Shown one piece after another: positions 7,405 through 40,377 of a DNA stretch of 42,510 bases. Made by a program: the position numbers and the translations under genes. Within the stretch, counting starts at the first letter, position 1. Each line of letters begins with the position of its first letter. This DNA is from Candidatus Moraniibacteriota bacterium (GTDB lineage Bacteria; Patescibacteriota; Minisyncoccia; Moranbacterales; UBA1568), in the NCBI GenBank assembly GCA_023261685.1, contig JAHFOM010000001.1, positions 1 through 42,510 on the forward strand, in the 5' to 3' direction. The notes under the pieces are model-generated. The model did no database searches and was not told the DNA's origin. It was given only the letters and a program-made list of their open reading frames with translations.

Positions 7405-7433
7405 ATTATACACCCTCCTACTCTTTTTGTCAA
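7405..7433 (-). promoter_or_regulatory. Perfect-consensus sigma70 promoter TTGACA-N17-TATAAT driving 6637..7287
   Basis: On the minus strand, TTGACA is the complement of 7428-7433 and TATAAT the complement of 7405-7410. The spacer is 17 nt. The -35 lies exactly 9 bp beyond the end of the repeat element at 7443. Confidence 0.75.
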
Positions 7434-7442: not shown

Positions 7443-7674
7443 CTTACATTCTATCCTAAAGTGCAATGGTTCAACCGCCAAAAGAATTTTTTGGCTCTCG
7501 TTTCACACTGTGTGAAGAAGGTCTCTCGGCTCGAAAAAAGAAGCTTCTCCGCCATTGATTGGGGGCGACTTTTTTCTCGTTCAGCCGAGAGGTCCTGATG
7601 AGTGGTGGAATGGAGACAAAAAATTACTTTTGGTGGTTGAACTGAAATGAGCAAGTATTGCACTTCAGAATAGA
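7443..7674. repeat. Rod-like quasi-palindromic element, copy 1 (unclassified structured repeat)
   Basis: 232 bp, non-coding, and homologous to 15708-15943 (core roughly 85-90 percent identical by eye). It has long complementary arms and nested inner stems, with compensatory differences between the copies. Details are in the findings. Confidence 0.85.
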
Positions 7675-7714
7675 GCTCGGGGGGAGCTACCATAAACTAA
7701 AGGAATCCCTCCCC

Positions 7715-7755
7715 CTAAAAAAGAAAAAGGCGGGAACGTCATGATCGTTCCCGCC
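7715..7755 (-). terminator. Rho-independent terminator of the LysM-protein gene
   Basis: Stem GGCGGGAACG (7729-7738) pairs with CGTTCCCGCC (7746-7755). On the minus strand it is followed by TTTTTCTTTTTT. Confidence 0.85.
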
Positions 7756-7863
7756 TGATTTGATGCATTGCATCAGTAGTGAATTTTCTTCTCTGTTCCG
7801 ATTCCAGGCCGATAGCGTGACTTACTACCCTTTTTATAGGTCCTTGGACGGAGTGAAAAGATT

Positions 7864-9558
7864 TTATTGAGTTTTCGGTATGACCGGTACCATCACGAAA
7901 CCATTGCTCGTGACGACGGCACCGGTCGTATCGATGATCTGTTTGGCACGATGTTTGGTACGAAGGACTTTAGCACCCTTCATAGCGTCACACCACCAAC
8001 CCCATGCCTGTGCGTTACCGCCGGCAATAAAGTCGTGATCATAGCCGACACCGACACCGCAAATGCGATGCGGATCAGCTATACCGATGCGGGCGCTCCC
8101 TGACTCAGCTCCAGGTTTTTCGAGGAAATACCCAAGCTGGATGTAAGGATTGAACCATTTGCCTTCGTACAACCATTGGCGTACGCCGGCATTGAAATAG
8201 AGATCAAGCTTGGAAAGCTCATCCGTATCTTCAATCGGTCTTCCTTGCCAGGAATGCGAAACGTCTCTGGAGAAGGGAAACATCAGCGTCCCGAACACTT
8301 GTGTTTCAGGAAACCATTTTTCCCCTGCCATCCTCCGCTTATAGTTGTTATAAGAGAGAGACGGACCAAACATCCCGAATTCCCGATCGCTTTCGTAGTC
8401 GCCCTGTGTGAACGACTCATCCAGCTTCCCGACGAGGAGTTTGACTTCGCTGTCCCACCCATAATCGGAGATATACTCATAGCCAGGTCCAATGGTCAAA
8501 AACTTACCCTTGAACTTGCCATCACCGCTGTTAACTTTACCATTCCACCACGAGTTCTGTGTGCCTATGCCGACACCGTGAGTCCCGTGTTCTCCGCGCC
8601 AGGTACAGTACACAGCCGCGGAGAAAAATGTGGAATGTGCGTCGTTGCCAGAATGCTTGGGTTGGTGCTCCTGTCCGATGACCAGTTTGGGATCAATCGG
8701 ACAACGTTTGGATTTTTCTTCCAAAACAGGTTCTACGGGTATGGGCAGAAGCAAACTGACTTCCGGTACCACAGTCGGAGCCTCGGGTTTAGGGAGAGAA
8801 ACTGGAATGACCCAATTCCCACACCACAGCACCTGAGCAATGACTTTCCCCGTAGAGAGAGTATATTGTCTGGCAGCAATCGCAGTGCCGGGTTTGAGTG
8901 TGCCCCAATCGGCCCGGACTTTGTGCCAGATCTCATTCTTTCCAAATGAGACTGACTCAAAGCGGTCACCGGACACAAACTGCGTCCAGGTGAACTGCTT
9001 CTGCGCTACGAGACCTTTGAGCTCAAGAATCTCTTGAGCCGTCAGTCCGTGCTGTTTCCACGCTGTTTCATTGTCGCCTCGGAAAGGATTGCCACCGACA
9101 ACCTTCCAAGAGCAATACCCTTGTGCGTCGCGCTGGCAGTCCTTCTTTTTCTCTAGGACCGTATTACGAGCAGTCAGCGTCAATGTCTTTGCAGAAGCAG
9201 CATTGACCGCCATTGCCACCATGATCTCCTTCTGAGGAGACAGGAGCAATACCTGCCCAACATGGATCCGATTGCAATCCGACAGATTGTTGATCCGGCA
9301 GACAGTCTGCCAACTGCGCGGAGCAATCGTGCTCAATGTTTCTCCCTTACGGACAATATGTGTATCCGTGGGAGTAGCCGGTTGCTGTTTCGCTATCGGT
9401 GATTTTTTCAAAACCACCAGCGACGAGACCTCTGTTTCCTGAGGCGGTAACTCCAATGCTGCGCTCGGCATTATTCTCCGGAGCGGTTCTGCAGACACTG
9501 TTTGGTTCAACAAAGAACCTCCCAGTAGCAGCAGAGCACAGATCAAAAACCTAAACAT
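7864..9558 (-). CDS. Secreted LysM-domain protein with a large uncharacterised C-terminal region
   Basis: 564-aa ORF with an AGGAG-type RBS. Signal peptide MFRFLICALLLLGGSLLNQTVSA. LysM-like segment HIVRKGETLSTIAPRSWQTVCRINNLSDCNRIHVGQVLLL. The remainder has no recognised domain. Confidence 0.8.
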   Translation of the reverse strand: MFRFLICALLLLGGSLLNQTVSAEPLRRIMPSAALELPPQETEVSSLVVLKKSPIAKQQPATPTDTHIVRKGETLSTIAPRSWQTVCRINNLSDCNRIHVGQVLLLSPQKEIMVAMAVNAASAKTLTLTARNTVLEKKKDCQRDAQGYCSWKVVGGNPFRGDNETAWKQHGLTAQEILELKGLVAQKQFTWTQFVSGDRFESVSFGKNEIWHKVRADWGTLKPGTAIAARQYTLSTGKVIAQVLWCGNWVIPVSLPKPEAPTVVPEVSLLLPIPVEPVLEEKSKRCPIDPKLVIGQEHQPKHSGNDAHSTFFSAAVYCTWRGEHGTHGVGIGTQNSWWNGKVNSGDGKFKGKFLTIGPGYEYISDYGWDSEVKLLVGKLDESFTQGDYESDREFGMFGPSLSYNNYKRRMAGEKWFPETQVFGTLMFPFSRDVSHSWQGRPIEDTDELSKLDLYFNAGVRQWLYEGKWFNPYIQLGYFLEKPGAESGSARIGIADPHRICGVGVGYDHDFIAGGNAQAWGWWCDAMKGAKVLRTKHRAKQIIDTTGAVVTSNGFVMVPVIPKTQ

Positions 9559-9678
9559 CTTTTTTTCTCCTTCCAGAATTTCAGGGAAGGCTCAGAAGAG
9601 ATACCAGCTGAATGAAACAGCGGATACCCCAAGCAGAACCTGGTAGGGATTGCTGTTTCAGACTGCATACGTATCTCC

Positions 9679-10524
9679 TCATTTCATACAATCTTCTTTG
9701 GTCACTACACGCACATTTTGAATGGCGGCAAAAGCCAAGCTGATTGTTACCAGTCCCGGCGAGATGGGTGCTATTCCGCAGGATACCAATCGGTCGATAG
9801 GGTTATCGACCTTGGTGAAGCGGGACGCCACAATCTTGGTGTCCGGTCGCCCGGAATACACCACGCCGTTAATCACGAAGCGTCCCGGATCAAAAAGTTT
9901 TTCCAACTCGGAAAAAAATTTTTGACCGTTGGGGTCTTTCCTATCCATCCGCACCACTTGCGTGATCCGCGATGGATGTTGTTGGAAAAATCCCGCTGGA
10001 AGCGTTTTGCTCACCGGAAGAATCATCTGTTCACCGTAGACCGTCATCAGCCACGAGGCGTCAAGCGGAATGATAACCAGATTGCTTCCGACAAAGTTTC
10101 CCTCTGAAGGTAAGAGCACAAAGAAACCGCTGAGCGATGGGTTCAGCACCGCATCAAACATTTCTATGAACTCCCCACCATCGGTATAGCGAAGCGCCCG
10201 AAAGACCACTTTCTCCAAGGGCTTCAATGCTTTTTTTTGCTTGCCGTTCTCATCGGTACCGAGAACAACCTCGTAGACACGGTGCGTGTCCACGAACTCC
10301 TCCGACCAATAGGTCGGCACAGGATCCGGTAGCGCGACATACGCCACTGACAAAGCCTGCACTTGCGATATATCCCCTTTCAGGGTCATCGTGTGCCATG
10401 GCTCCTGGCGACCGATGGGTTCTTTGGCAGTTACTTCAAATCCGGCTTTTTTTCCAATGCTTGCACATCCAGAAAGAAGCACGGCAATGAGAAGCAACGG
10501 TACGTACCAATGCTTTCTCTTCAT
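9679..10524 (-). CDS. Hypothetical lipoprotein
   Basis: The ORF track gives 9679..10620. I prefer the start at 10524, MKRKHWYVPLLLIAVLLSGCAS, which has a lipobox (LLSGC) and is preceded by AGAGGAGAAGAAG. Confidence 0.7.
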   Translation of the reverse strand: MKRKHWYVPLLLIAVLLSGCASIGKKAGFEVTAKEPIGRQEPWHTMTLKGDISQVQALSVAYVALPDPVPTYWSEEFVDTHRVYEVVLGTDENGKQKKALKPLEKVVFRALRYTDGGEFIEMFDAVLNPSLSGFFVLLPSEGNFVGSNLVIIPLDASWLMTVYGEQMILPVSKTLPAGFFQQHPSRITQVVRMDRKDPNGQKFFSELEKLFDPGRFVINGVVYSGRPDTKIVASRFTKVDNPIDRLVSCGIAPISPGLVTISLAFAAIQNVRVVTKEDCMK

Positions 10525-10676
10525 CTTCTTCTCCTCTTTGTAAGTTTTTAAAAAACTCTGAAATTCATGAGAAAGATCAGAAACACTGAACCCTCCTCGG
10601 AAGAAAGGGACTTCCTGCAATCACGCAAGCGCCCCTCTCTTCCGAGGAGGCTTTGCTGTAAAGCCTCACTCTACAC

Positions 10677-11351
10677 TTATACCTCGGTACCAAGAATATC
10701 GTTCAAATGAATGGCGTTTGCATGCATGCTTTTTTTTCGTAAAGCTTCATATCTCAGCGTGATAAAAAATCCACTAAGGAAACACCCGGAAAAAAATCCG
10801 GCGAGAATAACTTTTATCATTTCGACGAACGTCGGGTTTTGCTGATTGATCGGACCGGACATCACGCGGATCTCCACGCTCTTTTCATCACCTCCGCGAA
10901 AGAGTGAGTTTTTTTGTGTCAGCACCTCTGCTATTCCGCTGATGACTCGCGAGGCATCACGTTCACGATCGTTTTTGACGGTGATACTGATAATGCCCAG
11001 TTCCAGATTTTTTTTGACACTGACCATCTTGCTCCACGCCTTGAGACGATCTTTCTTATCAAAAGGCAAAAATTCGCTGTTCACCTTGCCCGTCTCGACA
11101 ACCGTATCGATGAAACGCTCGCTGAAGAGCGCTTCGCTCAGCACCTTGCCCAAATACTCGGATGATTTGAACTGGGTATAAAAATCCTGTCCCCCGGCAT
11201 TCGTTTGAACGATGAGGAAATCCATCTCGGATTGAAACGGCTTTTCTATCATCACCAGCGCGAAAAAACTGATCCCGGCGAGCAGAGTCCCTGAAAGGAG
11301 TATGCTGCCTGCCTTTCCCTTTATGAGGGCAAAAAATTGCTGTATTTCCAT
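10677..11351 (-). CDS. Polysaccharide co-polymerase-like (Wzz/YveK-type) protein with two terminal TM helices
   Basis: 224 aa. It has an N-terminal TM (SILLSGTLLAGISFFALVMI), a soluble middle and a C-terminal TM (VILAGFFSGCFLSGFFITL). The call rests on topology and size only. Confidence 0.5.
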   Translation of the reverse strand: MEIQQFFALIKGKAGSILLSGTLLAGISFFALVMIEKPFQSEMDFLIVQTNAGGQDFYTQFKSSEYLGKVLSEALFSERFIDTVVETGKVNSEFLPFDKKDRLKAWSKMVSVKKNLELGIISITVKNDRERDASRVISGIAEVLTQKNSLFRGGDEKSVEIRVMSGPINQQNPTFVEMIKVILAGFFSGCFLSGFFITLRYEALRKKSMHANAIHLNDILGTEV

Positions 11352-11379
11352 AGGATTCAGTAATAATTTATGACTTCAT

Positions 11380-11408
11380 ATCCTACCAAATAATAAGAAA
11401 AATGTCAA
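11380..11408 (-). promoter_or_regulatory. sigma70-type promoter TTGACA-N17-TAGGAT for 10677..11351
   Basis: The complement of 11403-11408 is TTGACA and the complement of 11380-11385 is TAGGAT. The spacer is 17 nt. Confidence 0.65.
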
Positions 11409-11423
11409 GCGCTACCCCATATT

Positions 11424-11451
11424 AAAAATCCCCCGCCAAGAGGGATTTTTT
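11424..11451. terminator. Hairpin terminator after rseP (A/T tracts on both sides)
   Basis: The sequence AAAAATCCCCCGCCAAGAGGGATTTTTT forms a stem (ATCCC/GGGAT) flanked by A5 and T6. Confidence 0.75.
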
Positions 11452-11474
11452 AGACTGACTTTTCTTGTCCGGCG

Positions 11475-12626
11475 CTAGGAGAACAGTCCGCTGATTTTTT
11501 CGAGCAGGTGAAATGTAGAGAAATCACGCACGGTGATGACGACCATCAGCAATAGGAGCAGCATAAAACCTATCTGATGGATCATTCCTTCGGTTTTCCG
11601 GCGTATCGGCGACCCTTTGAGTTTCTCGATCAGGATGAAGAGGATGCGTCCGCCATCAAGCGCCGGAATCGGCAAGATATTGATGATGGCGAGATTGATA
11701 GAGAGGAGCGCGGCAAATTGGAGAAGATAGGCGATCCCGAGATCGCTCATCTGCTTGGTGAGATAGACGATGCCGACGGGACCAGTCACATCCACCGGCG
11801 CCCCCGTCCCTGCTCCGAACAAGCCGGCAAGCATCGATCCGAAAGCGCCGAGAATTGCCAGCGTGATGTTATAGGTAGCGACCGCTCCCTGATAGATGGA
11901 TTCATACCACGGATACGACACGGTAGCCGTCTCTGAAAAAGAAATCCCGAGACTTCCCTCGTTCGCCGGGTATTCCGTCCGTGGCATACCAGAAAGAACC
12001 ATTTCTTTGCCAAGCCGATTGATACGCATCTCTAGCATCTGTCCTCTGTGATCCGTGATGATCCCACTCACCTGCTCAAGAGTAGTGATCGGTGCCCCGG
12101 CAATGGTCAAAATCTCATCGCCGAGCTGGAGCCCCATCGCTTCGGCAGGCGTGCCTTTCTTGACTTCAAGGATCTGGATCTTGACATCGGAATACGCTGC
12201 CCGCTGACTCGAATCAATCGGCTGTGGCAAACCCAAAGTGAATACCGTGGTGATCAAGAACCACGCAAACAGCATATTCATCACGACACCCGCGCCGAGC
12301 ACCTTGACTCGCACCCATGCTGATTTTCGGGCAAAGCTGTCCAGATCATCATTTTGCCCGTCTTCGCCCTTGATCCGGACAAATCCGCCGAGCGGCAGCC
12401 AATTGAAAGAGTAAATCGTCTCTTTGACCCCGCCATCTTTACTTCCCCAGATGATTTTGTAGCGTCCCGTCTCCACATTCTTCACCACACCGATCAGACG
12501 TGGCGGAAAGCCAAAACCGAATTCATCTACTTTGATACCGTTTCGTCTCGCCGCGACGAAATGCCCGAGCTCGTGGACGAACACCAAGAGACCCAAGAGA
12601 ACAATGAAAATGAGGATTGTAAGCAT
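11475..12626 (-). CDS. rseP: RIP zinc metalloprotease RseP (M50 site-2 protease)
   Basis: 383 aa. HELGHFVAARRNG (HExxH) lies in the first TM. There is a central PDZ-like segment, and a C-terminal NILPIPALDGG motif. Confidence 0.9.
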   Translation of the reverse strand: MLTILIFIVLLGLLVFVHELGHFVAARRNGIKVDEFGFGFPPRLIGVVKNVETGRYKIIWGSKDGGVKETIYSFNWLPLGGFVRIKGEDGQNDDLDSFARKSAWVRVKVLGAGVVMNMLFAWFLITTVFTLGLPQPIDSSQRAAYSDVKIQILEVKKGTPAEAMGLQLGDEILTIAGAPITTLEQVSGIITDHRGQMLEMRINRLGKEMVLSGMPRTEYPANEGSLGISFSETATVSYPWYESIYQGAVATYNITLAILGAFGSMLAGLFGAGTGAPVDVTGPVGIVYLTKQMSDLGIAYLLQFAALLSINLAIINILPIPALDGGRILFILIEKLKGSPIRRKTEGMIHQIGFMLLLLLMVVITVRDFSTFHLLEKISGLFS

Positions 12627-12630
12627 AGAG

Positions 12631-12672
12631 GTAATAAAGGATAATGGATAAGTGATAGAAGATAATTGATAA
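12631..12672 (-). repeat. Six tandem heptamers (TTATCNN) immediately upstream of the rseP start codon
   Basis: The minus strand reads TTATCAA TTATCTT CTATCAC TTATCCA TTATCCT TTATTAC. That is 42 nt with strict 7-nt periodicity, ending 4 nt before the rseP ATG. Confidence 0.7.
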
Positions 12673-12724
12673 AAGAGAGAAGTTTTTTATCCTGCATCTT
12701 TTATCATGTATCATGCATCTCTTC

Positions 12725-13282
12725 TCACACAGTGAGAATCTCTTCCTCTTTCTTTTTGCGGACGGTCTCGAGTTTTTGATTATACTCGTCCACCACCTTC
12801 TGTAGTTCATCCTTACCTAAAAACTTGTCGTCTTCGGCGATAGCGCCCGTCCGCTCCAGTTCCTGAATGTCTTTCCAGATTTCTTCGCGGAGCGTCCGAA
12901 TGACGATTCGACTGTCTTCGAGACGATGATTGAGCAATTTTACCAACTCCTTGCGCCGGTCTTCGGTCAATGCCGGAAGCATAATGCGGATATTCTGCCC
13001 ATCATTACCCGGATTGAGCCCCAAATCGGAATCACGGATGGCCGATTCGATAAACACCAGCCCGCCTTTGTCCCACGGCTGGATGAGAATCTGGCGCGCC
13101 TCAGGAATATTGATGCTCGCAATCTGCTTGAGCGGAGTCTTGACTCCGTAATAGTCCACAAGCAGATTCTCCACCAAACCGGGATTGGCGCGGCCGGTAC
13201 GAATCTTGCTCGCTTCAAGCAGAAAATGCTCCACCGCCTCATCAAAACTTGCTATTTTTTCAGCAATCAACTCTTTTATCAT
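12725..13282 (-). CDS. frr: Ribosome recycling factor
   Basis: 185 aa. The family pattern runs through the whole length: FLLEASKIRTGRANPGLVENLLVDYYG, LNPGNDGQNIRIMLPALTEDRRKELVK, and a C-terminal KEEEIL. Confidence 0.95.
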   Translation of the reverse strand: MIKELIAEKIASFDEAVEHFLLEASKIRTGRANPGLVENLLVDYYGVKTPLKQIASINIPEARQILIQPWDKGGLVFIESAIRDSDLGLNPGNDGQNIRIMLPALTEDRRKELVKLLNHRLEDSRIVIRTLREEIWKDIQELERTGAIAEDDKFLGKDELQKVVDEYNQKLETVRKKKEEEILTV

Positions 13283-13333
13283 AGGATATTTCTTAACAAT
13301 AACATTTAACGCACCCTAATAGCCAATATACTC

Positions 13334-14464
13334 CTAAAACTTACGTAACGCGAAGTAGAGTATTTCCCGATGATTCGGGTCATATTCGATGACACTCACG
13401 GTGCGATTGATTTCCAGCTGTGTCGTCGCCCATTTCGTTCCGCCATCGACAGACCGGTAGAAAGCGTTTCCGGAAGCGTAGACGATTTCATCCGAATTGG
13501 CGGGGTTGACAGCTATCGCGCGTACCGGAAATTTCTTCGAACTCTCGATGATATCCAAAGCTTCCCACGTCCTGCCGCTGTCGCGACTGCGGAAGACACC
13601 ATTCTTCGCGCCGGTATAGAGCGTGCCTGGACGAGAAACGTCGCTCGCCAAAGCCGTCATACCATCAGGTTTTTGCGAAAGAGCGTCTTTGGATGATGAA
13701 ACACTTCCCGCGTTCTGTCCCTCATAGATGCTTTCGCTTCTTTCGTTGGGCATTCTTGATGTGTATGTTTCCTCTGCCTCGACGTTCCATGTTTTTCCGC
13801 CGTCCGTTGAGATATTGACTCCCTTATCCAAAACGAGCAAGGCTATTTTTTCCGGCGCGCCTCTTTCAAACAAAATTTTTGTCACCGGTCCCTTGGCCAC
13901 TCCGATATTGTCCCACGTCGCACCGCCGTTGGTACTCTTGATAATCACTCCGGCACTGGTCCCAGCATAGAGCACGTCCGAAATGTCGGGACTCGCCCCG
14001 AGCGCGGTGATGACGGTACCCTTGCCCGGCTCGGTATAGATTTCTTTCCAATTCTTCCCTCCGTCGTCAGAGCGATACATCTTGGCTATGTCATTATACA
14101 CGCCGCTGGCATAGATCTGGTCGCTATTGTCACGACCAAAAGTCAGCCCATAGTTTTTCAGCGGCGGAAACACGAGCGGTTCCCAGCGTTCACCGCCGTC
14201 CGTTGTCTTGAAGAGTCCGCTACTGATGGTGCCGATGTAGATGGTTTCCGGATGACGCGGATCAATGACGAGCGACAGCACATCAGCTGAAGATATTTTC
14301 CGCTGCTCATCAACCGTCACTTTCGGCACGAACGTCGCCCCAGAGTCAAAGGACTTCCAGATACTCCCACCACCAGAAGCTGTCCCCACAGTCGGCAGGT
14401 TGAGACTGCACCCGGACAAGAAGAAAGCCGATACCGAAACCAGAGCTATTTTCCAAAAACGCAT
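13334..14464 (-). CDS. BNR/Asp-box repeat beta-propeller lipoprotein
   Basis: 376 aa with the lipoprotein signal VSAFFLSGCS. It has at least six Asp-box (SxDxGxTW-like) repeats: TTDGGERWE, SDDGGKNWK, STNGGATWD, STDGGKTWN, SRDSGRTWE and SVDGGTKWA. Confidence 0.8.
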   Translation of the reverse strand: MRFWKIALVSVSAFFLSGCSLNLPTVGTASGGGSIWKSFDSGATFVPKVTVDEQRKISSADVLSLVIDPRHPETIYIGTISSGLFKTTDGGERWEPLVFPPLKNYGLTFGRDNSDQIYASGVYNDIAKMYRSDDGGKNWKEIYTEPGKGTVITALGASPDISDVLYAGTSAGVIIKSTNGGATWDNIGVAKGPVTKILFERGAPEKIALLVLDKGVNISTDGGKTWNVEAEETYTSRMPNERSESIYEGQNAGSVSSSKDALSQKPDGMTALASDVSRPGTLYTGAKNGVFRSRDSGRTWEALDIIESSKKFPVRAIAVNPANSDEIVYASGNAFYRSVDGGTKWATTQLEINRTVSVIEYDPNHREILYFALRKF

Positions 14465-14539
14465 ATTTGTCTCTCAAAAGATATGCTTTTAGTATACCAC
14501 ACCTCTTCATTTTCCCCTTTGGCATTTTTCCCACTGGGG

Positions 14540-14568
14540 TTGACTTTTTCAGAGAAAAGGAGTATAAT
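14540..14568 (+). promoter_or_regulatory. sigma70-type promoter TTGACT-N17-TATAAT for 14610..14960
   Basis: TTGACT lies at 14540-14545 and TATAAT at 14563-14568, with a 17-nt spacer. Confidence 0.7.
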
Positions 14569-14609
14569 ATAAGAAAGACTTCTTTAACAACCAATCAGAG
14601 GGGTATAGA

Positions 14610-14960
14610 ATGACGTATGAAATTGATGAAGATCTTCTTAGAGAAGTTCTCTACGAAAAAGAATGGGCGGAAGCTATCATCATCAGCGATGATTCGGCTC
14701 TTAAGCGGATAATAAGTATTGTCGGTCAATGGTGGGAGGAAAACAAAAATAATAAAAAATTAGGGAAGTATGCTTTCCCTCGTAAACTCAACTCCACCGT
14801 ACGTGGCGTGCTCTACCACGCTCCAAGGAAGGCTAAAAACCGGTACAAGGATCTCACAAACGCCTATTTTCAGGCAGAGCTGGCAAACAAAAGGGTTCTG
14901 GAAAAAGCCGCCAGAAAGGTGGAAGAAGAAAAGAGACAACCCTCATTTAACTTTGGATGA
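14610..14960 (+). CDS. Hypothetical protein (116 aa, charged, no recognisable domain)
   Basis: The ORF has a GAGGGG RBS 7 nt upstream, its own promoter and its own terminator. Confidence 0.55.
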   Translation: MTYEIDEDLLREVLYEKEWAEAIIISDDSALKRIISIVGQWWEENKNNKKLGKYAFPRKLNSTVRGVLYHAPRKAKNRYKDLTNAYFQAELANKRVLEKAARKVEEEKRQPSFNFG

Positions 14961-14996
14961 TACTATCCACCATCCAAACAGAGATCAAAAATAGAA

Positions 14997-15027
14997 CGCG
15001 CGAGGAAACTTTCTCGCGCTTTTTTCT
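14997..15027 (+). terminator. Rho-independent terminator
   Basis: Stem GCGCGAG (14998-15004) pairs with CTCGCGC (15013-15019) and is followed by TTTTTTC. Confidence 0.85.
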
Positions 15028-15052
15028 TTCCTCTTGTTTTCTCAATCAACTA

Positions 15053-15084
15053 TCACTATTTATGCAATTGTGCAAAAAGTGATA
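15053..15084. repeat. Imperfect 32-bp palindrome centred on GCAATTG
   Basis: The sequence is ATCACTATTTATGCAATTGTGCAAAAAGTGAT. The outer pair ATCACT/AGTGAT and the central GCAATTG are complementary. It shares the TGCAATTG core with the perfect palindrome 24 bp downstream. Confidence 0.6.
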
Positions 15085-15107
15085 TGTTGTAAATCACTCC
15101 TCTATTT

Positions 15108-15149
15108 CAAATATTACTTTTCTTGCAATTGCAAGAAAAGTAATATTTG
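15108..15149. repeat. Perfect 42-bp palindrome
   Basis: The sequence is CAAATATTACTTTTCTTGCAA|TTGCAAGAAAAGTAATATTTG. I checked it base by base: 21+21 with no mismatch and no spacer. Confidence 0.95.
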
Positions 15150-15171
15150 GTCAAAAAGAATAAACTTTGAG

Positions 15172-15218
15172 AAAAGAAAAAGGCCAGAAGCGATATTTCG
15201 CGACTGGCTCTTTTTTTC
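15172..15218. terminator. Bidirectional hairpin terminator (serves 15238..15594 on the minus strand)
   Basis: The sequence AAAAAGGCCAGAAGCGATATTTCGCGACTGGCTCTTTTTTT forms stems GCCAG/CTGGC and GCGA/TCGC, with an A-tract before and a T-tract after. Confidence 0.7.
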
Positions 15219-15237
15219 TTCGTTAGACACGAAATTT

Positions 15238-15594
15238 TTACTCCGTACTTTTTTTGACTTCAGCTTCTACTGCTTCACAGACAACGGGAGTTTTTACGAC
15301 GAATGTTCCCGGTTGCGCCTCGCCATCCACATAGCGGACCTTGAGGTCAACTGTGACTGAGCAGTCCCTGATGCCTTTCAGCGGGATCTGCGACAGATCT
15401 GCTTTTTCAGTAATACTCTTACGAAAGATTGCCTGCGCTCCATATTCTAGAGTAGGAGGTATTAGATACAAGAGCATGCCATATACCATAAGTAGTACCG
15501 GAAACAGAGTGATAGCTTTCTCAAAAAGAGCCCACAAAAAACCACATGTGAAAAGAATAAGCCCCATTAGCAGTAACCATTCAAATACATCCAT
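15238..15594 (-). CDS. Small membrane protein (two predicted TM helices plus a soluble C-terminal part), hypothetical
   Basis: The ORF track gives 15238..15666. I prefer the start at 15594 (MDVFEWLLLMGLILFTCGFLWALF), because GGAGG lies 8 nt upstream and a promoter at 15670-15698 lies inside the longer ORF. Confidence 0.6.
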   Translation of the reverse strand: MDVFEWLLLMGLILFTCGFLWALFEKAITLFPVLLMVYGMLLYLIPPTLEYGAQAIFRKSITEKADLSQIPLKGIRDCSVTVDLKVRYVDGEAQPGTFVVKTPVVCEAVEAEVKKSTE

Positions 15595-15669
15595 CTTTCC
15601 ATCCTCCGTAAAAGCGTGCCAAGATATGATACCTCGGCTCAAGTTGAAGTTGTTAAGGCACTTCAAATG

Positions 15670-15698
15670 ATACTAGCACAAAACAGCCATCCCGTCAA
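15670..15698 (-). promoter_or_regulatory. sigma70-type promoter TTGACG-N17-TAGTAT for 15238..15594
   Basis: The complement of 15693-15698 is TTGACG and the complement of 15670-15675 is TAGTAT, with a 17-nt spacer. The -35 lies exactly 9 bp beyond the left end (15708) of repeat copy 2. Confidence 0.7.
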
Positions 15699-15707
15699 TA
15701 CCCGAAG

Positions 15708-15943
15708 CTTACATTCCATTCTGAAGCACACCCATACTCACCTCAGTTCAGCCACCAAAAGAATTTTTTGGCTATCGTTTCACACTGTGTGAAGAAGGCC
15801 TCTCGGTTCGGAAAAATAAGCTTTTCCGCCATTGATTGGGGGCTGATGTTTCCGGTTAACCGAGAGGTCCTGATGAGTGGTGAAATGGAGACAAAAAATT
15901 ACTTTTGATGGTTGAACCATTGCACTTCAGGATAGGATGTAAG
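15708..15943. repeat. Rod-like quasi-palindromic element, copy 2
   Basis: 236 bp, homologous to 7443-7674, with both termini CTTACAT / ATGTAAG intact. The ~17-nt arm insertion lies on the opposite arm compared with copy 1. Confidence 0.85.
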
Positions 15944-15952: not shown

Positions 15953-15981
15953 TTGACTCTTGAAGAAAAATTCATTAGAAT
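15953..15981 (+). promoter_or_regulatory. sigma70-type promoter TTGACT-N17-TAGAAT for tRNA-Lys
   Basis: TTGACT lies at 15953-15958 and TAGAAT at 15976-15981, with a 17-nt spacer. The -35 lies exactly 9 bp beyond the right end (15943) of repeat copy 2. Confidence 0.75.
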
Positions 15982-16019: not shown

Positions 16020-16092
16020 GGGTCGTTAGCTCAGTTGGTAGAGCAGTGGCCTTTTAAGCCAACGGTCGCAGGTTCGAATCCTGCACGACCCA
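16020..16092 (+). tRNA. tRNA-Lys (anticodon UUU)
   Basis: I folded the cloverleaf by hand. The acceptor stem is GGGTCGT/ACGACCC, the D arm GCTC..GAGC, the anticodon loop CTTTTAA and the T arm GCAGG TTCGAAT CCTGC. The discriminator is A and no CCA is encoded. Confidence 0.95.
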
Positions 16093-16106
16093 CACAAAAC
16101 TGAAAG

Positions 16107-31184: not shown

Positions 31185-31205
31185 GAAACAGAAGCCTCAC
31201 TTCCC

Positions 31206-31322
31206 TATCCCCGAAAAAGAAGACTGATCGGAGGTACCGGCTTGGATTTTCAGATTGACGAGGAGGAGCTCGATGATGAAGCAAGAGCCTTTGCCCTGAC
31301 CGTCGGACTTTATTTAACAGCC
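31206..31322 (-). pseudogene. Detached histidine-kinase 3' tail, copy A (in-frame C-terminal fragment only)
   Basis: In the kinase frame it translates as IKSDGQGKGSCFIIELLLVNLKIQAGTSDQSSFSGIGK*. It is bounded upstream by a TAA stop. It is homologous to the real 3' end of the kinase gene at 33340-33462. The tracked ORF 31147..31329 reads a different frame of the same DNA. Confidence 0.65.
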
Positions 31323-32039: not shown

Positions 32040-32165
32040 CTACTTCCCCAACCCCGCGAAAGAAGCCTGATCGGAGGTGCCGACTGCTATTTTCGGATTG
32101 ACGAGGGGGAGCTCGATGATGAAGCGGGCGCCTTTGCATGGACCAGCACCTTCTCCGTGGCATCC
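32040..32165 (-). pseudogene. Detached histidine-kinase 3' tail, copy B (in-frame C-terminal fragment only)
   Basis: It translates as ...GCHGEGAGPCKGARFIIELPLVNPKIAVGTSDQASFAGLGK* and is homologous to 33340-33462. It starts about 25 nt after the stop of the M20 gene. Confidence 0.65.
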
Positions 32166-33339: not shown

Positions 33340-33462
33340 CTACTTCTTCCCCACCCCAGAGAAAGAAGCCTGATCAGAGGTGCCAGCCTTGATTTTCGGA
33401 TTGATGAGGGGGAGCTCGATAATGAATCTTGCGCCTTTGCCCGGACCGTCTGATTCCACGTG
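33340..33462 (-). repeat. Histidine-kinase 3' tail, copy C (the one still attached to the gene)
   Basis: It encodes IHVESDGPGKGARFIIELPLINPKIKAGTSDQASFSGVGKK*. By eye it is roughly 75-80 percent identical in nucleotides to copies A and B. Confidence 0.8.
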
Positions 33463-35049
33463 GATATGACCGCCGTGCGCTTCGACGAAGTTCTTGCCGA
33501 CGAAGAGTCCGAGTCCCGTACCGGAGACCACCATCTTGGTCGTTTCATTGCTCCGGCTGAATTTCTCAAACAATTTATTCTTGTCTTCGGGGTGAATGCC
33601 GATACCAGTGTCTGAGACGATGATGCGCGCTACCCGGTCATCCCCCTCCACTGATACTGTGACTCCCCCCTCCTTGGTATACTTCAGAGCATTGTCGATC
33701 AGATTGGACACGACTTCTTTGATCTTGCCCGCATCCAGCGTGAGCTTGGGCAGTCCGACTTTCGGCAGATGGATCTTGAGCGAGAGCTTCTTGTTCTTCG
33801 CCGCCAGAGCGAACATATCCACGAGCTCCGCCACCAGTGGCTCCAGCTGTGTCGGTGCAAAAGCATACTGGATGCGTCCCGCTTCAATGCGCGAGATATT
33901 GAGGAGATCTTCTACCAATTGCACGAGCCGGCTGTTGATGGTATAGAGTTTGTCGAGTACGTCTTGGATCGCCACGGGGACTTTGCCATAGGAGCCTTCG
34001 AGGATGAGCGAGACATAGCCCTTGATAGCGGTCAGCGGCGTGCGCAACTGGTGCGAAGCGATGGAGATGAATTCCGATTTTGCCATATCGAGCTCGCGCA
34101 AGCGGTCATTGGCGACTGCCAGACTGTTCGAAAGTTTCTGGAGTTCTTCCTTGCGCTCTACTTCCGCTTTAACCGACCGGATGAGAATCCAACCAGCCAC
34201 CAGCGTAATGATGAGCGTAATACTGACCAAGATATAGTTCATCATACTAGTCACCACTGTCAGCATCGCGGCAATGAGGAGAAACTGCGTCACCACCAGC
34301 GCCTGCGCCCCGATGAGCTTGATATCAAAGGCTTTGAATTTGACGATGAGGTAGGCGAGGAAACCAATAAATACTGGCATTCCAAAAAGTCCATATTGTT
34401 CCCATTCAAAATTATCAAACAGACTCGCCCAATAACTACTTATAGAAAAGGAGAGGAGGAAGAAACCAATTCCTATTGTAAACAACAAAATTTTTCGCTT
34501 TTCTTCACGCTTAATCGCTTTTCTGTAGCGAAAGAATGAAACTCCTAAAATCCAAAATAATAATAAAAAGCCCACGATATAGTAGTAATCCGTGTAGAGT
34601 TTTGCTTCTGTTGATTCACAATTTGGAACATCAAATCCACTTAAATGAAAGTTGGTCATCGATAAAATAATCACTGGGAGCAATAGCATCCCAAAAATCA
34701 ACTTTTTATTAAGAGAAATATCACATCCATTTAGAAAAGAATAAAAGAGATAGACGGCTGATACATATATCAACATATAAATAACCCCCAAATATGCCCA
34801 TGTAAACATTATTTTGCTCCCATCCGTAGTCGTCCAAATAATCAAATCAAAATACGACCATAGTGAAAAAAATATAGAGAGCATCAAAAGTAAGCGGGCT
34901 GAGATATTTTTTCTATTTTTGACAAAAACAAACAAAGCTAACAATAAGGATACTGCCGCTGTCGGTATGTGAGAATAATACAATAACAATGGGTTTGATT
35001 GAATAAACTGATAGCAACTTTCGATATTGGTGACTAAGTTGAAATTCAT
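33340..35049 (-). CDS. Sensor histidine kinase with an N-terminal ~7-TM sensor domain
   Basis: 569 aa. H-box SIASHQLRTPLTAIKGY, N-box NLIDNALKYT, G1 DTGIGI and G2 GTGLGL. The N-terminal ~270 aa are polytopic membrane. Confidence 0.9.
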   Translation of the reverse strand: MNFNLVTNIESCYQFIQSNPLLLYYSHIPTAAVSLLLALFVFVKNRKNISARLLLMLSIFFSLWSYFDLIIWTTTDGSKIMFTWAYLGVIYMLIYVSAVYLFYSFLNGCDISLNKKLIFGMLLLPVIILSMTNFHLSGFDVPNCESTEAKLYTDYYYIVGFLLLFWILGVSFFRYRKAIKREEKRKILLFTIGIGFFLLSFSISSYWASLFDNFEWEQYGLFGMPVFIGFLAYLIVKFKAFDIKLIGAQALVVTQFLLIAAMLTVVTSMMNYILVSITLIITLVAGWILIRSVKAEVERKEELQKLSNSLAVANDRLRELDMAKSEFISIASHQLRTPLTAIKGYVSLILEGSYGKVPVAIQDVLDKLYTINSRLVQLVEDLLNISRIEAGRIQYAFAPTQLEPLVAELVDMFALAAKNKKLSLKIHLPKVGLPKLTLDAGKIKEVVSNLIDNALKYTKEGGVTVSVEGDDRVARIIVSDTGIGIHPEDKNKLFEKFSRSNETTKMVVSGTGLGLFVGKNFVEAHGGHIHVESDGPGKGARFIIELPLINPKIKAGTSDQASFSGVGKK

Positions 35050-35972: not shown

Positions 35973-36081
35973 ACCCTTTCGGAATTACTCATTAACTCCC
36001 ATACTCATCAGCATACTCAGCCACCGTGCCACAAAAAACAAAACAACATACCTAAAAACAAGCATCCTTATCACTGCTTTG

Positions 36082-36109
36082 ATTATACAATAAACCCCTC
36101 TTTTTGCAA
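36082..36109 (-). promoter_or_regulatory. Candidate promoter TTGCAA-N16-TATAAT for 35097..35972
   Basis: The complement of 36082-36087 is TATAAT, immediately preceded by TG. The -35-like TTGCAA lies at 36104-36109, inside a small hairpin (CCCCT/AGGGG). Confidence 0.45.
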
Positions 36110-36200
36110 GGGGGGAAAGGCAGGAGCAAACCTATTCAGAGAGGCACTCAAGCCCTGACACTCCCATACAACCCGCCCTCCTTGATATATTTCAAAACAT

Positions 36201-36965
36201 CTACAATAATTCCTTCTCTATCACCTCAAATAACGGCCTCATATATTCATCCAGTTTGATACCATGTTGATCAAAAAATTGAGCAAAGTCCGTCCTCTTC
36301 TTATCAAGCATGACAATCTCGCCAAATTCCGGCTGCTCGTCATTTTTCTGTAATTGCAAAACAAAATCTTCGTACCTCTGCATAAACTGCAGACTCATTT
36401 CATTAAGAATGACTCTGTACACGACCGTCATTTTGTCCGTCGGTCCGCCTTCTTTGAAATACGCCAGATCAAACGACTTGATTCTTGATTGATCCCCGAT
36501 GTCGATCCCGAGCTCTTCTGCCAGTTCTTTTTTGATATTATGCTCAAAGTCAAAAACATCACCCCGCAAATCATCACTATCGATCCCACCTCCACAGAGC
36601 TGGTAGATGCCAGCACGAGACGTCTGCTCCCCCATTTTTCCAAACACTATTTTCCCATCTTCTGTCTCCACGAGTGCCGCCGTATGGATAATGTGCACGC
36701 CGTATTCATCAAGCGTATCCACATTCTGACAGTAGAGATAGTGGGCATAATCCGTTTTTTCTACCACTATTTCCATACGATCTTCGAACGTTTCTTTTTT
36801 TGTGACCGTAAAAACATCGCCGCGTTTGTAAGATTTGCCACTTTGAAGCAGCGTGTCCCAATAGGCATCAATCTTTCCCTGTATATCCGGAGGAAGCATC
36901 ACCTCCTGATTACTGAAACGCACGATGAGTTTTTTTGTCAGTGGGGAAACTACAAAGTCTTTCAT
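36201..36965 (-). CDS. Nudix-like hydrolase domain protein (functional call tentative)
   Basis: 254 aa. The segment GGGIDSDDLRGDVFDFEHNIKKELAEELGI resembles a Nudix box (Gx5Ex7REUxEExGU) but with irregular spacing and K in place of R. It has a 4-nt overlap with the upstream kinase gene. Confidence 0.45.
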   Translation of the reverse strand: MKDFVVSPLTKKLIVRFSNQEVMLPPDIQGKIDAYWDTLLQSGKSYKRGDVFTVTKKETFEDRMEIVVEKTDYAHYLYCQNVDTLDEYGVHIIHTAALVETEDGKIVFGKMGEQTSRAGIYQLCGGGIDSDDLRGDVFDFEHNIKKELAEELGIDIGDQSRIKSFDLAYFKEGGPTDKMTVVYRVILNEMSLQFMQRYEDFVLQLQKNDEQPEFGEIVMLDKKRTDFAQFFDQHGIKLDEYMRPLFEVIEKELL

Positions 36966-37948
36966 AAGGTCTGATTGAGCTTGTTAAAAAAATTCCACGT
37001 TTCTAACGCACGAGCTTCATTGTGCGCCTCCTGACTTGCATATTTCTTATTATCCCAAGAAAAATAAGATTGCTCTACGGAATCAATAATAAAGCGCAGA
37101 CATAATTCGAGTGTAACATACTTTATACAAGATACGACTTGAACATATGAAACTTTTCCTGTTTTACTGTTCGCAGAATTATACCCAGTAAGGAATCTCT
37201 CGGTTGCTTTCTTAAAGTCAGACCTGCTGGATAATGACAAAAGTGACCGGAGACAATCTCCAATATCAATGTAGATAGATCCGATCATAAAAGTATCATA
37301 GTCTATGAAAACAAGGGGGGCATGCTGTTTCGTAAATAGAATATTTTCTATTCGTGGGTCACCATGAATAATCTGCTGTTTTTCAGAAAGGATGTCAAAA
37401 TACTTTTCAAGATTATTTACTGTATCACCAAGTATGTTTTGTAGCTGAGGAGTATACCTACTTTTGTTTATGGATATAGCTTTCTGAATATAGAAATTTT
37501 TTTGATGAAAGCCATTGAGAATATGTTTTGGCTTGTAATGAAGATCTGCAAGGTCTTTATGTAGCAGACCCAACAGCAAACCCACATTTCTGTGAAGACT
37601 CTTAGAAATGTGTTTTTGTGAAAAACTAATGCCATTGACATATTCATATACTCTCCATAAACTGTCGTCTCTCTCATAAAACATTGTACACTGCCGTGAT
37701 CGCAATAATCGTGGGCAATCCCACTTTCTTTTCAGTAAATGTTGCGTTATAACATCAATATCATACATTAATTTCTTTTTGAGCATTTGATGTAATTTCT
37801 GTATTACAAACTCCTTACCATAGATGTTTTTTACGTAAAATGTTTTATTGATAAGCCCACCCTTAAGAACCTCTGCCTTAGAAATACGACCAATATCATA
37901 ACTTTGTATGACTCTTTTAATCTCATCATTAAAGATTGATGTAATCAT
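36962..37948 (-). CDS. Aminoglycoside-phosphotransferase/choline-kinase-fold small-molecule kinase
   Basis: 328 aa with the catalytic loop IIHGDPRIENILF (HxDxxxxN) and the metal-binding FIDYDT. Confidence 0.8.
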   Translation of the reverse strand: MITSIFNDEIKRVIQSYDIGRISKAEVLKGGLINKTFYVKNIYGKEFVIQKLHQMLKKKLMYDIDVITQHLLKRKWDCPRLLRSRQCTMFYERDDSLWRVYEYVNGISFSQKHISKSLHRNVGLLLGLLHKDLADLHYKPKHILNGFHQKNFYIQKAISINKSRYTPQLQNILGDTVNNLEKYFDILSEKQQIIHGDPRIENILFTKQHAPLVFIDYDTFMIGSIYIDIGDCLRSLLSLSSRSDFKKATERFLTGYNSANSKTGKVSYVQVVSCIKYVTLELCLRFIIDSVEQSYFSWDNKKYASQEAHNEARALETWNFFNKLNQTL

Positions 37949-38633
37949 AAGGAAATGCCTTTATGGATATTTCGTCGAATATAACATTTGGCGATGTTTT
38001 TGAAATGTACAAAATAAGCTCTGCAATATCATCCGTCTGCAGTATATTTTCTTCTACAGCATTATCTACAGAGCGCGACATGTCAGTAAGTACGCTTCCT
38101 GGAGAAACGAGCATACATCGGATTCCAGTAGAAAAGTTCTCTTTTTGCAATGATTTTACAAGTCCCATCAATCCTGCCTTGCTGGATGCGTAAGAGCAGT
38201 CCTTCTCTGTTCCGGAAGATCCCCACCTAGATCCAATGAGAATGATGGTACCCTTTATACTTTTATCTCGGAAATATTGTGTTCCAAATTTTGCTACGTG
38301 AAAGGATCCTGTTAGATTTACATCTATCGTGGATTTCCAATCATCACGATCTGTTTTTTCTGAATTTTTAAGTTTCAATATCCCAGCACAATTCACTATA
38401 CACTGAAAATCTTCCCTATTCGACTGTTGAAAAAAGTTAGATACATCAGAAAAATTTGTTACATCAAGAGTCTGATAAAAAAAGCTGTTACTTTTCTGAA
38501 TATCTTCCGGTAAAGAATTGCTAATATCAACACCGTAAACGACAAATCCATTATCAAGAAACTTTCGAGCAATACTCCTACCCATACCCCCACAAACACC
38601 TACAATAAGTATTCCATTTTTAGAAGGCATCAT
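37929..38633 (-). CDS. Short-chain dehydrogenase/reductase (SDR)
   Basis: 234 aa. The cofactor loop is VGVCGGMGRSIA and the catalytic YxxxK is YASSKAG. It overlaps both neighbouring genes, by 20 nt and 14 nt. Confidence 0.85.
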   Translation of the reverse strand: MMPSKNGILIVGVCGGMGRSIARKFLDNGFVVYGVDISNSLPEDIQKSNSFFYQTLDVTNFSDVSNFFQQSNREDFQCIVNCAGILKLKNSEKTDRDDWKSTIDVNLTGSFHVAKFGTQYFRDKSIKGTIILIGSRWGSSGTEKDCSYASSKAGLMGLVKSLQKENFSTGIRCMLVSPGSVLTDMSRSVDNAVEENILQTDDIAELILYISKTSPNVIFDEISIKAFPYDYINL

Positions 38634-39612
38634 AAAATTTTTGAAAGGGGGGATTATCTATTGGGGAATAGTTAGAACTTGTGAGGTACTCTTTATCCCT
38701 CTTGCTTAGGTTACCAATCTTGTTTTTATTATAGACAAAGAAATGCCCATTTCTCGATACATAATTTATTTCGACGTTATTAAATAATGACTCGTGTATA
38801 GCCTCATTCATATCATTTTCTCCATATAAAATAGGTATGCGAGATTTTTGCTTAGCAAGAAACCCTGTAATGATATCAATTACTTTGGCGGAGGGAGTCT
38901 CTATACTACAGATATCACCATGTCCCCCATTCTCTATTGCAAACATAGTGAGATCAATAACATTTTGAGCAGTTAACATATAACGTGTCATACGTTTATC
39001 GCGTATCGTCACTGGCTTGTTTTCAACTATCTTTTTTTCAATAACATCTGTAAGCGATCCATTTGAATGAAGAATATTACCAAACCTGATAGCGATAAAC
39101 TTAATATGTGGGATATTTGCATTCTCTCCTAAAATTTCTAGAAATCGTTTTGAGGCTCCCATTGTGGATGAGGATTGTGCTGCTTTATCAGAAGAACATA
39201 AAATAACTCTCTCTATAAAATTACAGTTTCGCACAACCTTCATGATATTTGAAAAAGCAACAATATTTTCAAAAGCCATCTTTTCTGGATAGCAATACCC
39301 GGTAGACACATGTTTTAATGAGGCACAATGGATAACAATATTGACCTCGTATTTACAGAGAATTTCTTCTATAAATCTTGCATCAAGAACATCCCCAAAT
39401 TCAATATGAAACCGCTCTTTACTTTCAGACTCCCTTTTAATCTCCATAAGTTTTGCTAGAGCATCTTCCGATCGATCAATAGCACATATTTCATTTCCCT
39501 GAGATAAAAGAAATTTAGATAGGCTTAACCCTACTGTTCCGCCAGCTCCAGTGATAAGAATTTTTTTCATATGCTTTACATATGCTTTATAAGAGTATAA
39601 AAAATTGAGCAT
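38620..39612 (-). CDS. Polysacc_synt_2 family NDP-sugar 4,6-dehydratase/epimerase (CapD/PseB/WbpM-like)
   Basis: 330 aa, with an alternative start MKKILITGAGG at 39570. Motifs: ILITGAGGTVG, CASLKHV..YPEKMAFENI, SSDKAAQSSSTMGASK (the MxxxK variant typical of this family) and RFGNILHSNGS. Confidence 0.8.
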   Translation of the reverse strand: MLNFLYSYKAYVKHMKKILITGAGGTVGLSLSKFLLSQGNEICAIDRSEDALAKLMEIKRESESKERFHIEFGDVLDARFIEEILCKYEVNIVIHCASLKHVSTGYCYPEKMAFENIVAFSNIMKVVRNCNFIERVILCSSDKAAQSSSTMGASKRFLEILGENANIPHIKFIAIRFGNILHSNGSLTDVIEKKIVENKPVTIRDKRMTRYMLTAQNVIDLTMFAIENGGHGDICSIETPSAKVIDIITGFLAKQKSRIPILYGENDMNEAIHESLFNNVEINYVSRNGHFFVYNKNKIGNLSKRDKEYLTSSNYSPIDNPPFQKFYDAF

Positions 39613-39636
39613 CCTGGCGGTGCAGAATGCTCATAG

Positions 39637-40377
39637 TCAACCAGATGTTGGGATTCCAAAATACTTTATTATAAGATTGGAATTTTTCGAAAGAAAATCA
39701 AGATCTTCTAACGTCCCAAAATCAAAAAAGAACTTATTATTCATAATACTCCATACATCGGGGATGAGCCTTTCCATTGATTCTCGTTCAACATAAACAT
39801 CGTGGCTAGTATCAATGTTATCCAAGAACCTCTTTGTGTCCAAAACATAGAACCCCATCGTGCTCGAGGGAACACCTGAACACGTATTGTTTTTATCATA
39901 AAGTGACAGAATACTTCTTGTTTTTCTGTCTACTTTGACAAGACCGTAATTTGGAACATTCTTCTTGGTAGTAGTAAGCACAAGGCACGCCGCTTTTCTC
40001 TCAATGTGTTCCTTGCAAATTTTTCGCAAGTCAACACTCCATATATTATCACCAGTCAAAAGCAACGTATGATTATGTCTCACTTCAGACACCCCGGTAA
40101 AAGAACTAAAGGCAGTGCTTTTGGGATAGTCTTCCTCTACAAACCGTACTGACGAAGGAAAATTATTGTGAATTTCTTCCTCAATGAGCCATCCATTACA
40201 GGCGTTACTTCCTGTAACAATCACTTCGCTGATACCGTTTCGCAATAACCAAAAGACTAGATATCGCAAAAACGGAACCCCTCCAAAAGGGAGCATGCAC
40301 TTCGGTTTTTGCTCACAAATTTTACCAAGGCGACTTGCTCTTCCAGATGCTATGATAACTGCAGAAAAATGCACCAT
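39637..40377 (-). CDS. Sugar-phosphate nucleotidyltransferase (NTP_transferase family)
   Basis: 246 aa with the N-terminal signature AVIIASGRASRLG...KPKCMLPFGG. An AGGAGG RBS lies 4 nt upstream. It is the first gene of the AT-rich operon. Confidence 0.8.
   Translation of the reverse strand: MVHFSAVIIASGRASRLGKICEQKPKCMLPFGGVPFLRYLVFWLLRNGISEVIVTGSNACNGWLIEEEIHNNFPSSVRFVEEDYPKSTAFSSFTGVSEVRHNHTLLLTGDNIWSVDLRKICKEHIERKAACLVLTTTKKNVPNYGLVKVDRKTRSILSLYDKNNTCSGVPSSTMGFYVLDTKRFLDNIDTSHDVYVERESMERLIPDVWSIMNNKFFFDFGTLEDLDFLSKNSNLIIKYFGIPTSG

Follow-up and report, generated by a model that had tools for sequence, protein, structure and literature searches.

The Mpi-controlled polysaccharide promoter invertons of Bacteroides fragilis are homologous segments of ~150-230 bp that are bounded by inverted repeats, and their recombinase is possibly encoded elsewhere. 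The repetitive extragenic palindromic (REP) sequences and bacterial interspersed mosaic elements (BIMEs), the REPINs of proteobacteria and the enterobacterial repetitive intergenic consensus (ERIC) sequences are intergenic hairpin repeats with unequal inverted units (Y/Z-type) and often lie after terminators. In the candidate phyla radiation (CPR)/Patescibacteria, whose genomes are small and streamlined, repeat families are, to our knowledge, almost undescribed. The Correia elements of Neisseria (Correia repeat enclosed elements, CREE, or nemis) are non-coding, ~105-157 bp long and have terminal inverted repeats and a conserved directional core (PMC2649163). Alternative end types make their copies symmetric or asymmetric, the symmetry of the ends differs between strains, many copies lie immediately 5′ of genes, and solo repeats are deletion remnants (PMC2649163). 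The features that define the family are a 26-bp Correia repeat, core ends CCGGTACGG/TCAGGACAA and a Neisseria host (PMC2649163). Inversion of a Correia element has also been reported, according to a later article that refers to the work (Elbeyioglu 2017, cited in PMC10969869). Here we describe a ~230-bp, hairpin-shaped, quasi-palindromic and non-coding element that occurs twice in a 42,510-nt stretch of a Candidatus Moraniibacteriota genome (contig JAHFOM010000001.1, positions 1 to 42,510; hereafter the window). The core of this Moranbacteria element is found in two orientations relative to its arms. We put the probability at about 0.5 that the element is a composite repeat resembling a miniature inverted-repeat transposable element (MITE), with an ancestral flip across its inner inverted repeat, two inherited subfamilies and core-limited gene conversion.

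By analogy, the closest counterpart of the element appears to be the Correia element, and it may be regarded as MITE-like in kind: it is short, non-coding, multi-copy (eight loci of ~230 bp) and has terminal inverted repeats. Like the Correia elements, it has a directional core, two end types, deletion remnants and a placement 5′ of genes. It is, however, not a member of that family, to which it shows no sequence similarity, and its host belongs to a different phylum (CPR). Its arms are 42-54 bp long and carry a 12-13-nt indel, whereas the Correia repeats measure 26 bp; no TA duplication was seen at its ends; and its core evolves in concert apart from the arms. Moreover, the promoters at the Moranbacteria element lie wholly outside it, at a fixed 9 bp, whereas in CREE they are formed by the element ends. 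With REP sequences and BIMEs the element shares propagation without coding capacity of its own, an intergenic hairpin and unequal inverted units, but it is much longer, has a distinct conserved core and is precisely positioned relative to promoters. In addition, it differs from REP sequences and REPINs in that there is no GTAG-type motif at the arm ends and no Y1 transposase (RAYT) domain is encoded in the window.

Copy 1 (7443-7680) is arranged as short arm, core and long arm, and copy 2 (15708-15943) as long arm, core and short arm (Table 1). A repeat finder returned the direct repeats 7469-7566/15746-15843 and 7578-7642/15853-15917, each 92% identical. Both cores are thus in the + orientation, as a first-pass annotation of this DNA had held, and over their length they are ~90% identical in direct orientation. 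The outer parts, by contrast, match when inverted (7443-7506 against 15880-15943, 81% complementary), and the short-arm string has one exact match in the window, at 7443-7484. In a four-way alignment of both copies and both strands, a 13-column gap interrupted copy 1 in its left arm and copy 2 in its right arm, which bears out the earlier placement of an extra segment in the opposite arm of each copy, right in copy 1 and left in copy 2; its net size is 12-13 nt instead of the ~15-18 nt first given. These extra blocks (X) are identical at 9 of 14 positions as reverse complements and at no more than 5 of 14 in any direct register, which reproduces the original observation that they are homologous only in reverse complement; 0.2% of random 14-mers from the window reached 9/14. 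Over its outer 25 nt, copy 1's left arm shows 2 differences when set against the right arm of copy 2 (reverse-complemented) and 7 when set against the left one. The previous suggestion that a swapped pairing of the arms fits better therefore stands for the outer 25 nt but not for the inner 16 nt, and its count of 3 versus 5 single-nucleotide differences in GTTCAACC..CCAAAAG became 3 versus 3 on recounting. Thus, the alignment gaps, the pairing of the X blocks and the outer 25 nt reveal a core that is flipped relative to two distinguishable arms.

The anatomy of the element is that of three nested modules, outer arms, basal core and apical hairpin, each bounded by inverted repeats. The element termini are CTTACAT.../...ATGTAAG, and the basal core runs from CCAAAAG to CTTTTGG. 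The conserved core comprises ~153 bp with inner terminal repeats CCAAAAGAATTTTTTGG / CAAAAAATTACTTTTGG of 16-17 bp, and the apical hairpin within it is 52 nt long and of type A or type B; the two types differ by three fully compensatory base pairs. The long arm of copy 1 ends in a variant terminus, ...GAATAGAGCTCGG, that is common to the locus L002, and the block in the long arm of copy 2 is degenerate (CACACC). Each copy folds into one long imperfect hairpin of -95 to -103 kcal/mol on the + strand (z ~-8). In all copies the core folds more stably on the + strand than on the - strand, by ~10 kcal/mol, and with 4-6 rather than 0-2 G-U pairs.

The first-pass annotation had proposed tabulating arm against core orientation in more copies, and this revealed that both layouts recur in six further loci. 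The eight loci, compared with their cores in the same orientation, come from two strains and comprise c1 and c2 (copies 1 and 2 of the window), c2′ (the ortholog of c2 in a sister strain, L011-13/L005), L001, L002, L003, L004 and L006. Three have layout A, with the short (S) arm, core and long (Lg) arm in that order (c1, L002 and L004), and five have layout B, Lg-core-S (c2, c2′, L001, L003 and L006). No Lg/Lg or S/S copy occurs among the eight, the right arm of L004 lying beyond the contig end and the short arm of L003 being truncated. The S arm corresponds to the Lg arm minus a clean 12-13-nt block between GCAAT and RGTYCA, and the deletion junction, GCAAT directly followed by RGTYCA, is identical on either side of the core. 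An ATCC signature is present in 5 of 7 S arms and 0 of 7 Lg arms (p=0.02), and between layouts, homology of the X blocks is seen only when one of them is reverse-complemented. Each of the two arm types behaves as a unit. The two complete layout-A copies, c1 and L002, come from different strains and different loci, yet the Lg arm of both has an intact TGCAAT block and a CYGAGYTC terminus, characters found in none of the five layout-B Lg arms (p=0.048). In every copy, the GAATTTT / AAATTAC asymmetry within the innermost repeat goes with the core; any exchange must therefore lie further out, within the ~17 bp (A/G)GTYCARCCRCCAAAAG. An nhmmer profile of the eight copies, searched against the window and all loci, found no extra or degenerate copies besides a remnant in L017, and there are no solo arms in the 42.5-kb window.

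Comparison of the copies showed that cores and arms have different histories of change. Among cores of the same genome and apex type, identity is 99-100% (that of L001 equals that of L006), and between strains it is 95.5-97.4%, whereas arms are only 58-89% identical; indeed, L001, L003 and L006 have identical cores between arms that are 71-76% identical. Concerted evolution thus acts on the core separately from the arms. At c2 the sister strain has kept the Lg-core-S layout at ~5% divergence of the seryl-tRNA synthetase (SerRS), with arms ~88% identical, and the apex is of type B in the window and of type A in the sister strain. Since the apex differs while layout and arms are kept, modules have been exchanged between copies. 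The sister-strain ortholog of c1 (L017 6578-6644, equivalent to window 7443-7700) is a diverged left-arm remnant only, rather than an empty site. A 214-bp deletion between the microhomologies AAAGAAT and AAGGAAT took the core, the right arm and a G-rich hairpin (window 7673-7710). Copies thus decay by deletion, and this loss indicates that individual copies are dispensable. Compensatory evolution at the level of the arms was considered and rejected, because arm identity within copies (73%) is no higher than between copies.

The position of the element relative to promoters was determined by a script scan that used the criteria of a promoter tool (sigma70-like). At nearly all intact ends an outward sigma70-like promoter begins 9 bp past the terminus (8 bp in L003), namely at c1-left, c2-left, c2-right, L001-right, L002-left, L003-left and both c2′ ends; at L006-right, TTGACG is found at 9 bp and the locus end then cuts the site off. 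All intact S arms (that of L003 is truncated) face such a promoter, the sites at L004 and L006 being below threshold or cut off. The exact 9-bp spacing is far beyond chance. The earlier claim of an outward promoter next to the short arm applies to both copies in the window, and copy 2 has a second one next to its long arm (15698-15670, minus strand). The promoter at copy 1 drives an ORFan gene (7287-6637), as does the second promoter at copy 2 (15594-15238). That of tRNA-Lys is conserved in a relative without the element, and promoters at different loci are unrelated in sequence. They are therefore native, and the notion that they form part of the element was rejected on the same evidence; being unrelated and native, they imply either targeting or function that is precise to the base pair. 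The element occupies about -45 and beyond relative to these promoters. The polarity of the arms is fixed, running from an upstream gene or terminator through Lg, core, S and 9 bp to the -35 of the next promoter, and the core points along the flanking transcription in layout B and against it in layout A.

Table 1. Coordinates of the two copies of the element and of adjoining transcription signals in the window
Feature	Position	Strand	Details
Copy 1 short (S) arm	7443..7484	+	Terminus CTTACATTCTATCCTAAAG, block TGCAAT, inner repeat GGTTCAACCGCCAAAAG; unique exact match, arm table
Copy 1 core	7478..7633	+	156 nt, CCAAAAG to CTTTTGG, type-A apex
Copy 1 long (Lg) arm	7627..7680	+	13-nt block X at 7644-7656
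Copy 2 long (Lg) arm	15708..15761	+	Terminus 15708-15726, X at 15733-15744, inner repeat AGTTCAGCCACCAAAAG
Copy 2 core	15755..15908	+	154 nt, type-B apex, orientation as copy 1 core
Copy 2 short (S) arm	15902..15943	+	CTTTTGATGGTTGAACCATTGCACTTCAGGATAGGATGTAAG
Outward promoter TTGACA-17-TATAAT	7405..7433	-	-35 lies 9 bp past copy 1 S-arm terminus
Intrinsic terminator of upstream LysM gene	7728..7756	-	Copy 1 is located between it and the next promoter
Outward promoter TTGACT-17-TAGAAT of tRNA-Lys (16020-16093)	15953..15981	+	-35 lies 9 bp past copy 2 S-arm terminus
Second outward promoter TTGACG-17-TAGTAT	15670..15698	-	-35 lies 9 bp past copy 2 Lg-arm terminus

According to the reading that we prefer, the core would have been turned, once or rarely, by recombination across the inner repeat, with the exchange inside (A/G)GTYCARCCRCCAAAAG. 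A single ancestral event of this kind may have sufficed, and it would have yielded subfamilies A (S-core-Lg) and B (Lg-core-S). Both subfamilies would then have spread as whole elements, presumably mobilised by a transposase acting in trans, and have been stably inherited thereafter. Later, the cores but not the arms would have been homogenised within each genome by gene conversion between copies, and apex modules would have been swapped likewise. The correlation of layout with arm features outside the flipped part argues for inheritance by descent, not toggling.

Several observations weigh against this reading. Identity steps from ~70% in the arms to ~100% in the core exactly at CCAAAAG/CTTTTGG; so sharp a step is not predicted by transposition of whole elements and needs either core-limited gene conversion or selection on the core. 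The inverted repeat available for the exchange is ~17 bp long, a length at the margin of what RecA-type recombination needs and one seen more typically with site-specific enzymes. The flanks show no consistent direct repeat of the kind left by target-site duplication (ACTG occurs on both sides in L002 only), and no transposase is encoded in the 42.5-kb window or at the scattered loci. The S arms do not cluster by layout, c1-left being nearest to c2-right (89% identity). Apex B is confined to layout B, but with n=8 the association of apex with layout is not significant (p=0.14), and with just eight loci the statistics are weak throughout. The strand asymmetry of folding and the three compensatory apex pairs hint at a function in single-stranded form (RNA or ssDNA). 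Finally, the exact 9-bp spacing to the -35 is left unaccounted for.

A different view would make the element a family of programmed invertons, in which a site-specific recombinase encoded in trans flips the 153-bp cassette at the inner repeats and thereby alters expression from the adjacent promoter. The segment is indeed bounded by inverted repeats, namely the inner repeats plus the arms, and, similar to the B. fragilis invertons, such repeat-flanked segments lie upstream of genes and occur in both orientations among the loci of one genome. The high conservation of the cassette compared with its surroundings, the sharp boundary at the repeats, an exchange confined to <=17 bp, the fixed distance to the promoter, and an arm polarity that is fixed while that of the core varies would all be in keeping with this. 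However, among three window-strain and four sister-strain assemblies, no locus was seen in both orientations, orientations being read from assemblies and hence from consensus sequences. The window, L007 and L008, which stem from different samples, are identical across both copies and differ within 15.7 kb only elsewhere; in L005, L011, L012 and L013 the elements are identical and have the same layout. Orientation is thus the same in 3+4 independent assemblies, as it is between strains at c2, the single informative orthologous locus, and both apex type and features of the arms beyond the cassette correlate with it. The invertons also differ in having an internal promoter, whereas a search of both strands of the two window cores found no sigma70-like site, and the adjacent promoters need no core sequence to be complete. 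One copy, moreover, was simply deleted in the sister strain. No serine or tyrosine invertase Pfam domain was found in the window's open reading frames (ORFs) or in neighbouring loci, and the earlier statement that no invertase or recombinase is encoded in the window held good, as no main ORF contains such a domain or that of a transposase. Active switching therefore looks unlikely, and we consider a programmed inverton family improbable to the same degree. Still less probable, in our estimation, is a promoter-docking module that is fixed in arm orientation 9 bp upstream of the -35 and that carries a reversible 153-bp cassette served by a recombinase encoded elsewhere. Inversion across the inner repeat, as first proposed, thus finds support as a past evolutionary event but not as a currently invertible segment, and the flip most probably arose as a commonplace by-product of the evolution of an inverted-repeat element.

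The sharp core boundary can also be read as the edge of a nested element, a 153-bp core with repeats CCAAAAGAATTTTTTGG / CAAAAAATTACTTTTGG that, as a small mobile or homing unit in its own right, would have inserted, either way around, into the centre of an older hairpin, much as IS1397 inserts in BIME loops. The identical cores of L001, L003 and L006 between arms of 71-76% identity, a core orientation that is independent of arm polarity, and the change of the inner module at c2 between strains with the arms in place would all follow, and a single-strand intermediate would be in line with the strand asymmetry of core folding. Against this, no arms-only hairpin was found in the 42.5-kb window or at the other loci examined, the one solo arm was left by a deletion, cores devoid of arms were not found, and the correlation of layout with Lg-arm subtype is not what insertion in random orientation predicts; we hold nesting to be a tentative and rather unlikely alternative. 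The first-pass annotation had itself offered reciprocal loss from an ancestral long stem, with the block on both arms and the left one lost in one lineage and the right one in another; copies with the block on both arms would have favoured it. Such losses would explain why the Lg arms form two groups by side, and copies do decay by deletion. Yet a block on both arms, or on neither, is seen at none of the eight loci; the junction does not differ between the two sides; S arms from opposite sides are the closest relatives (2 versus 7 differences in 25 nt; 89% identity); and S-specific single-nucleotide variants go with the S arm. This makes reciprocal deletion very improbable. A family of structured RNA genes, each giving a + strand RNA of ~150 nt with arms that extend the closing helix and tolerate a bulge on either side, would accord with folding z-scores of ~-8, the more stable + strand with its G-U pairs, the three compensatory pairs between apex types and a core far more conserved than the arms. 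The compensatory changes could, however, also come from template switching in a DNA palindrome, and the X blocks of the two layouts, being complementary, are not equivalent as RNA. On neither strand is there a promoter that faces the core, copy 2 has outward promoters at both of its ends, and flanking transcription in layout A would read the wrong strand. There was no Rfam family match: in the Rfam search only two tRNAs reached the gathering threshold, and nothing credible appeared at E<=10 across copy 1. As the family is, in addition, absent from close relatives and one copy is deleted in the sister strain, an RNA gene seems an unlikely identity for the element. The composite MITE-like repeat remains the reading that we favour.

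Some further candidates were tried and rejected. A hammerhead ribozyme (CUGAUGAG...GAAA) was dismissed because stem II lacks room and Rfam gave no match. A small protein of 80 aa on the minus strand (7451-7693) was discarded, as the frame is shifted in c2 and L005 and has no conserved start; it had no homologue in a database of 5.8 billion proteins. The motifs GTTCAAC / GTTGAAC (7469-7475 / 7636-7642, and the copy 2 equivalents) fit the RYYYAAC / GTTRRRY of an integron attC site in some copies only. Other copies have GTCCAGC / GCTGGAC, and size and context are wrong for attC, so the resemblance is probably coincidence. The core also contains a conserved internal loop, GUGUGAAGAAGG / CCUGAUGAGU (window 7510-7521 with 7594-7603). 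On the + strand this loop can be drawn with two tandem G-A/A-G steps separated by A-U pairs, which would be K-turn or C/D-box-like.

SerRS homologues placed the host in Candidatus Moranbacteria/Moraniibacteriota (CPR). In a pattern scan of one genome per GTDB species, the core was found only in two metagenome-assembled genomes of one study (L001-L006). Both are titled 'uncultured Bdellovibrionales', and L005 is syntenic with the window at 88-97% identity; given this synteny and the grouping of the window's SerRS with Candidatus Moranbacteria, the 'Bdellovibrionales' label is probably wrong. No copy was found in JGI metagenomes, which gave one chance match inside a recN-like coding region, and there was no match in viral contigs or in phage and plasmid collections. 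Relatives with 84-90% SerRS identity have no element in the syntenic region, and their loci are rearranged. The family is young and restricted to one lineage. A limited literature search found no report of published MITEs in CPR.

The ORFan genes beside the two copies (118, 116 and 216 aa) had no Pfam, PHROG or NCBIfam match, and therefore none is a hidden transposase. The 216-aa gene beside copy 1 forms a single cluster among 5.8 billion proteins. The other two ORFans (116 and 118 aa) and copy 2 together make up ~1.2 kb (window 14465-15707) between a BNR-repeat gene and tRNA-Lys; in a relative whose SerRS is 84% identical (L025 8734-8846), only ~110 bp separate these two genes. A second, partial 3′ end of tRNA-Lys was observed downstream of SerRS in relatives, namely in L016 (~9020-9045 and 9822-9897) and in L025 (~8560-8585 and 8658-8733), and these partial copies look like attachment-site scars of elements integrated at tRNA-Lys. 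Elsewhere in the window, three ~120-nt copies that are 74-79% identical lie at 31197-31317, 32040-32160 and 33343-33463. On the minus strand this segment is the 3′ end of a histidine-kinase gene (33340-35049), and two of the copies are downstream of unrelated inserted genes (HepT-like and M20 peptidase); they resemble scars left by cassettes inserted at this 3′ end. The interval 36001-40000, with a G+C content of 0.37 compared to ~0.49 elsewhere, encodes sugar-nucleotide and polysaccharide biosynthesis and may be a horizontally acquired island.

With a flipped core and a swapped apex, the family shows modular, palindrome-mediated reshuffling. What remains most interesting, however, is less the flip than the precise, oriented placement of the element upstream of native promoters, together with its cassette-like core. 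If this placement reflects targeting or function, it would represent a novel means by which mobile or regulatory modules become associated with promoters. Were the core to flip in vivo, the family would constitute a multi-locus switch in an organism thought to be minimally regulated, and, should the element be a docking module with a reversible cassette, it would bring multi-locus phase variation to a genome of ~1 Mb.

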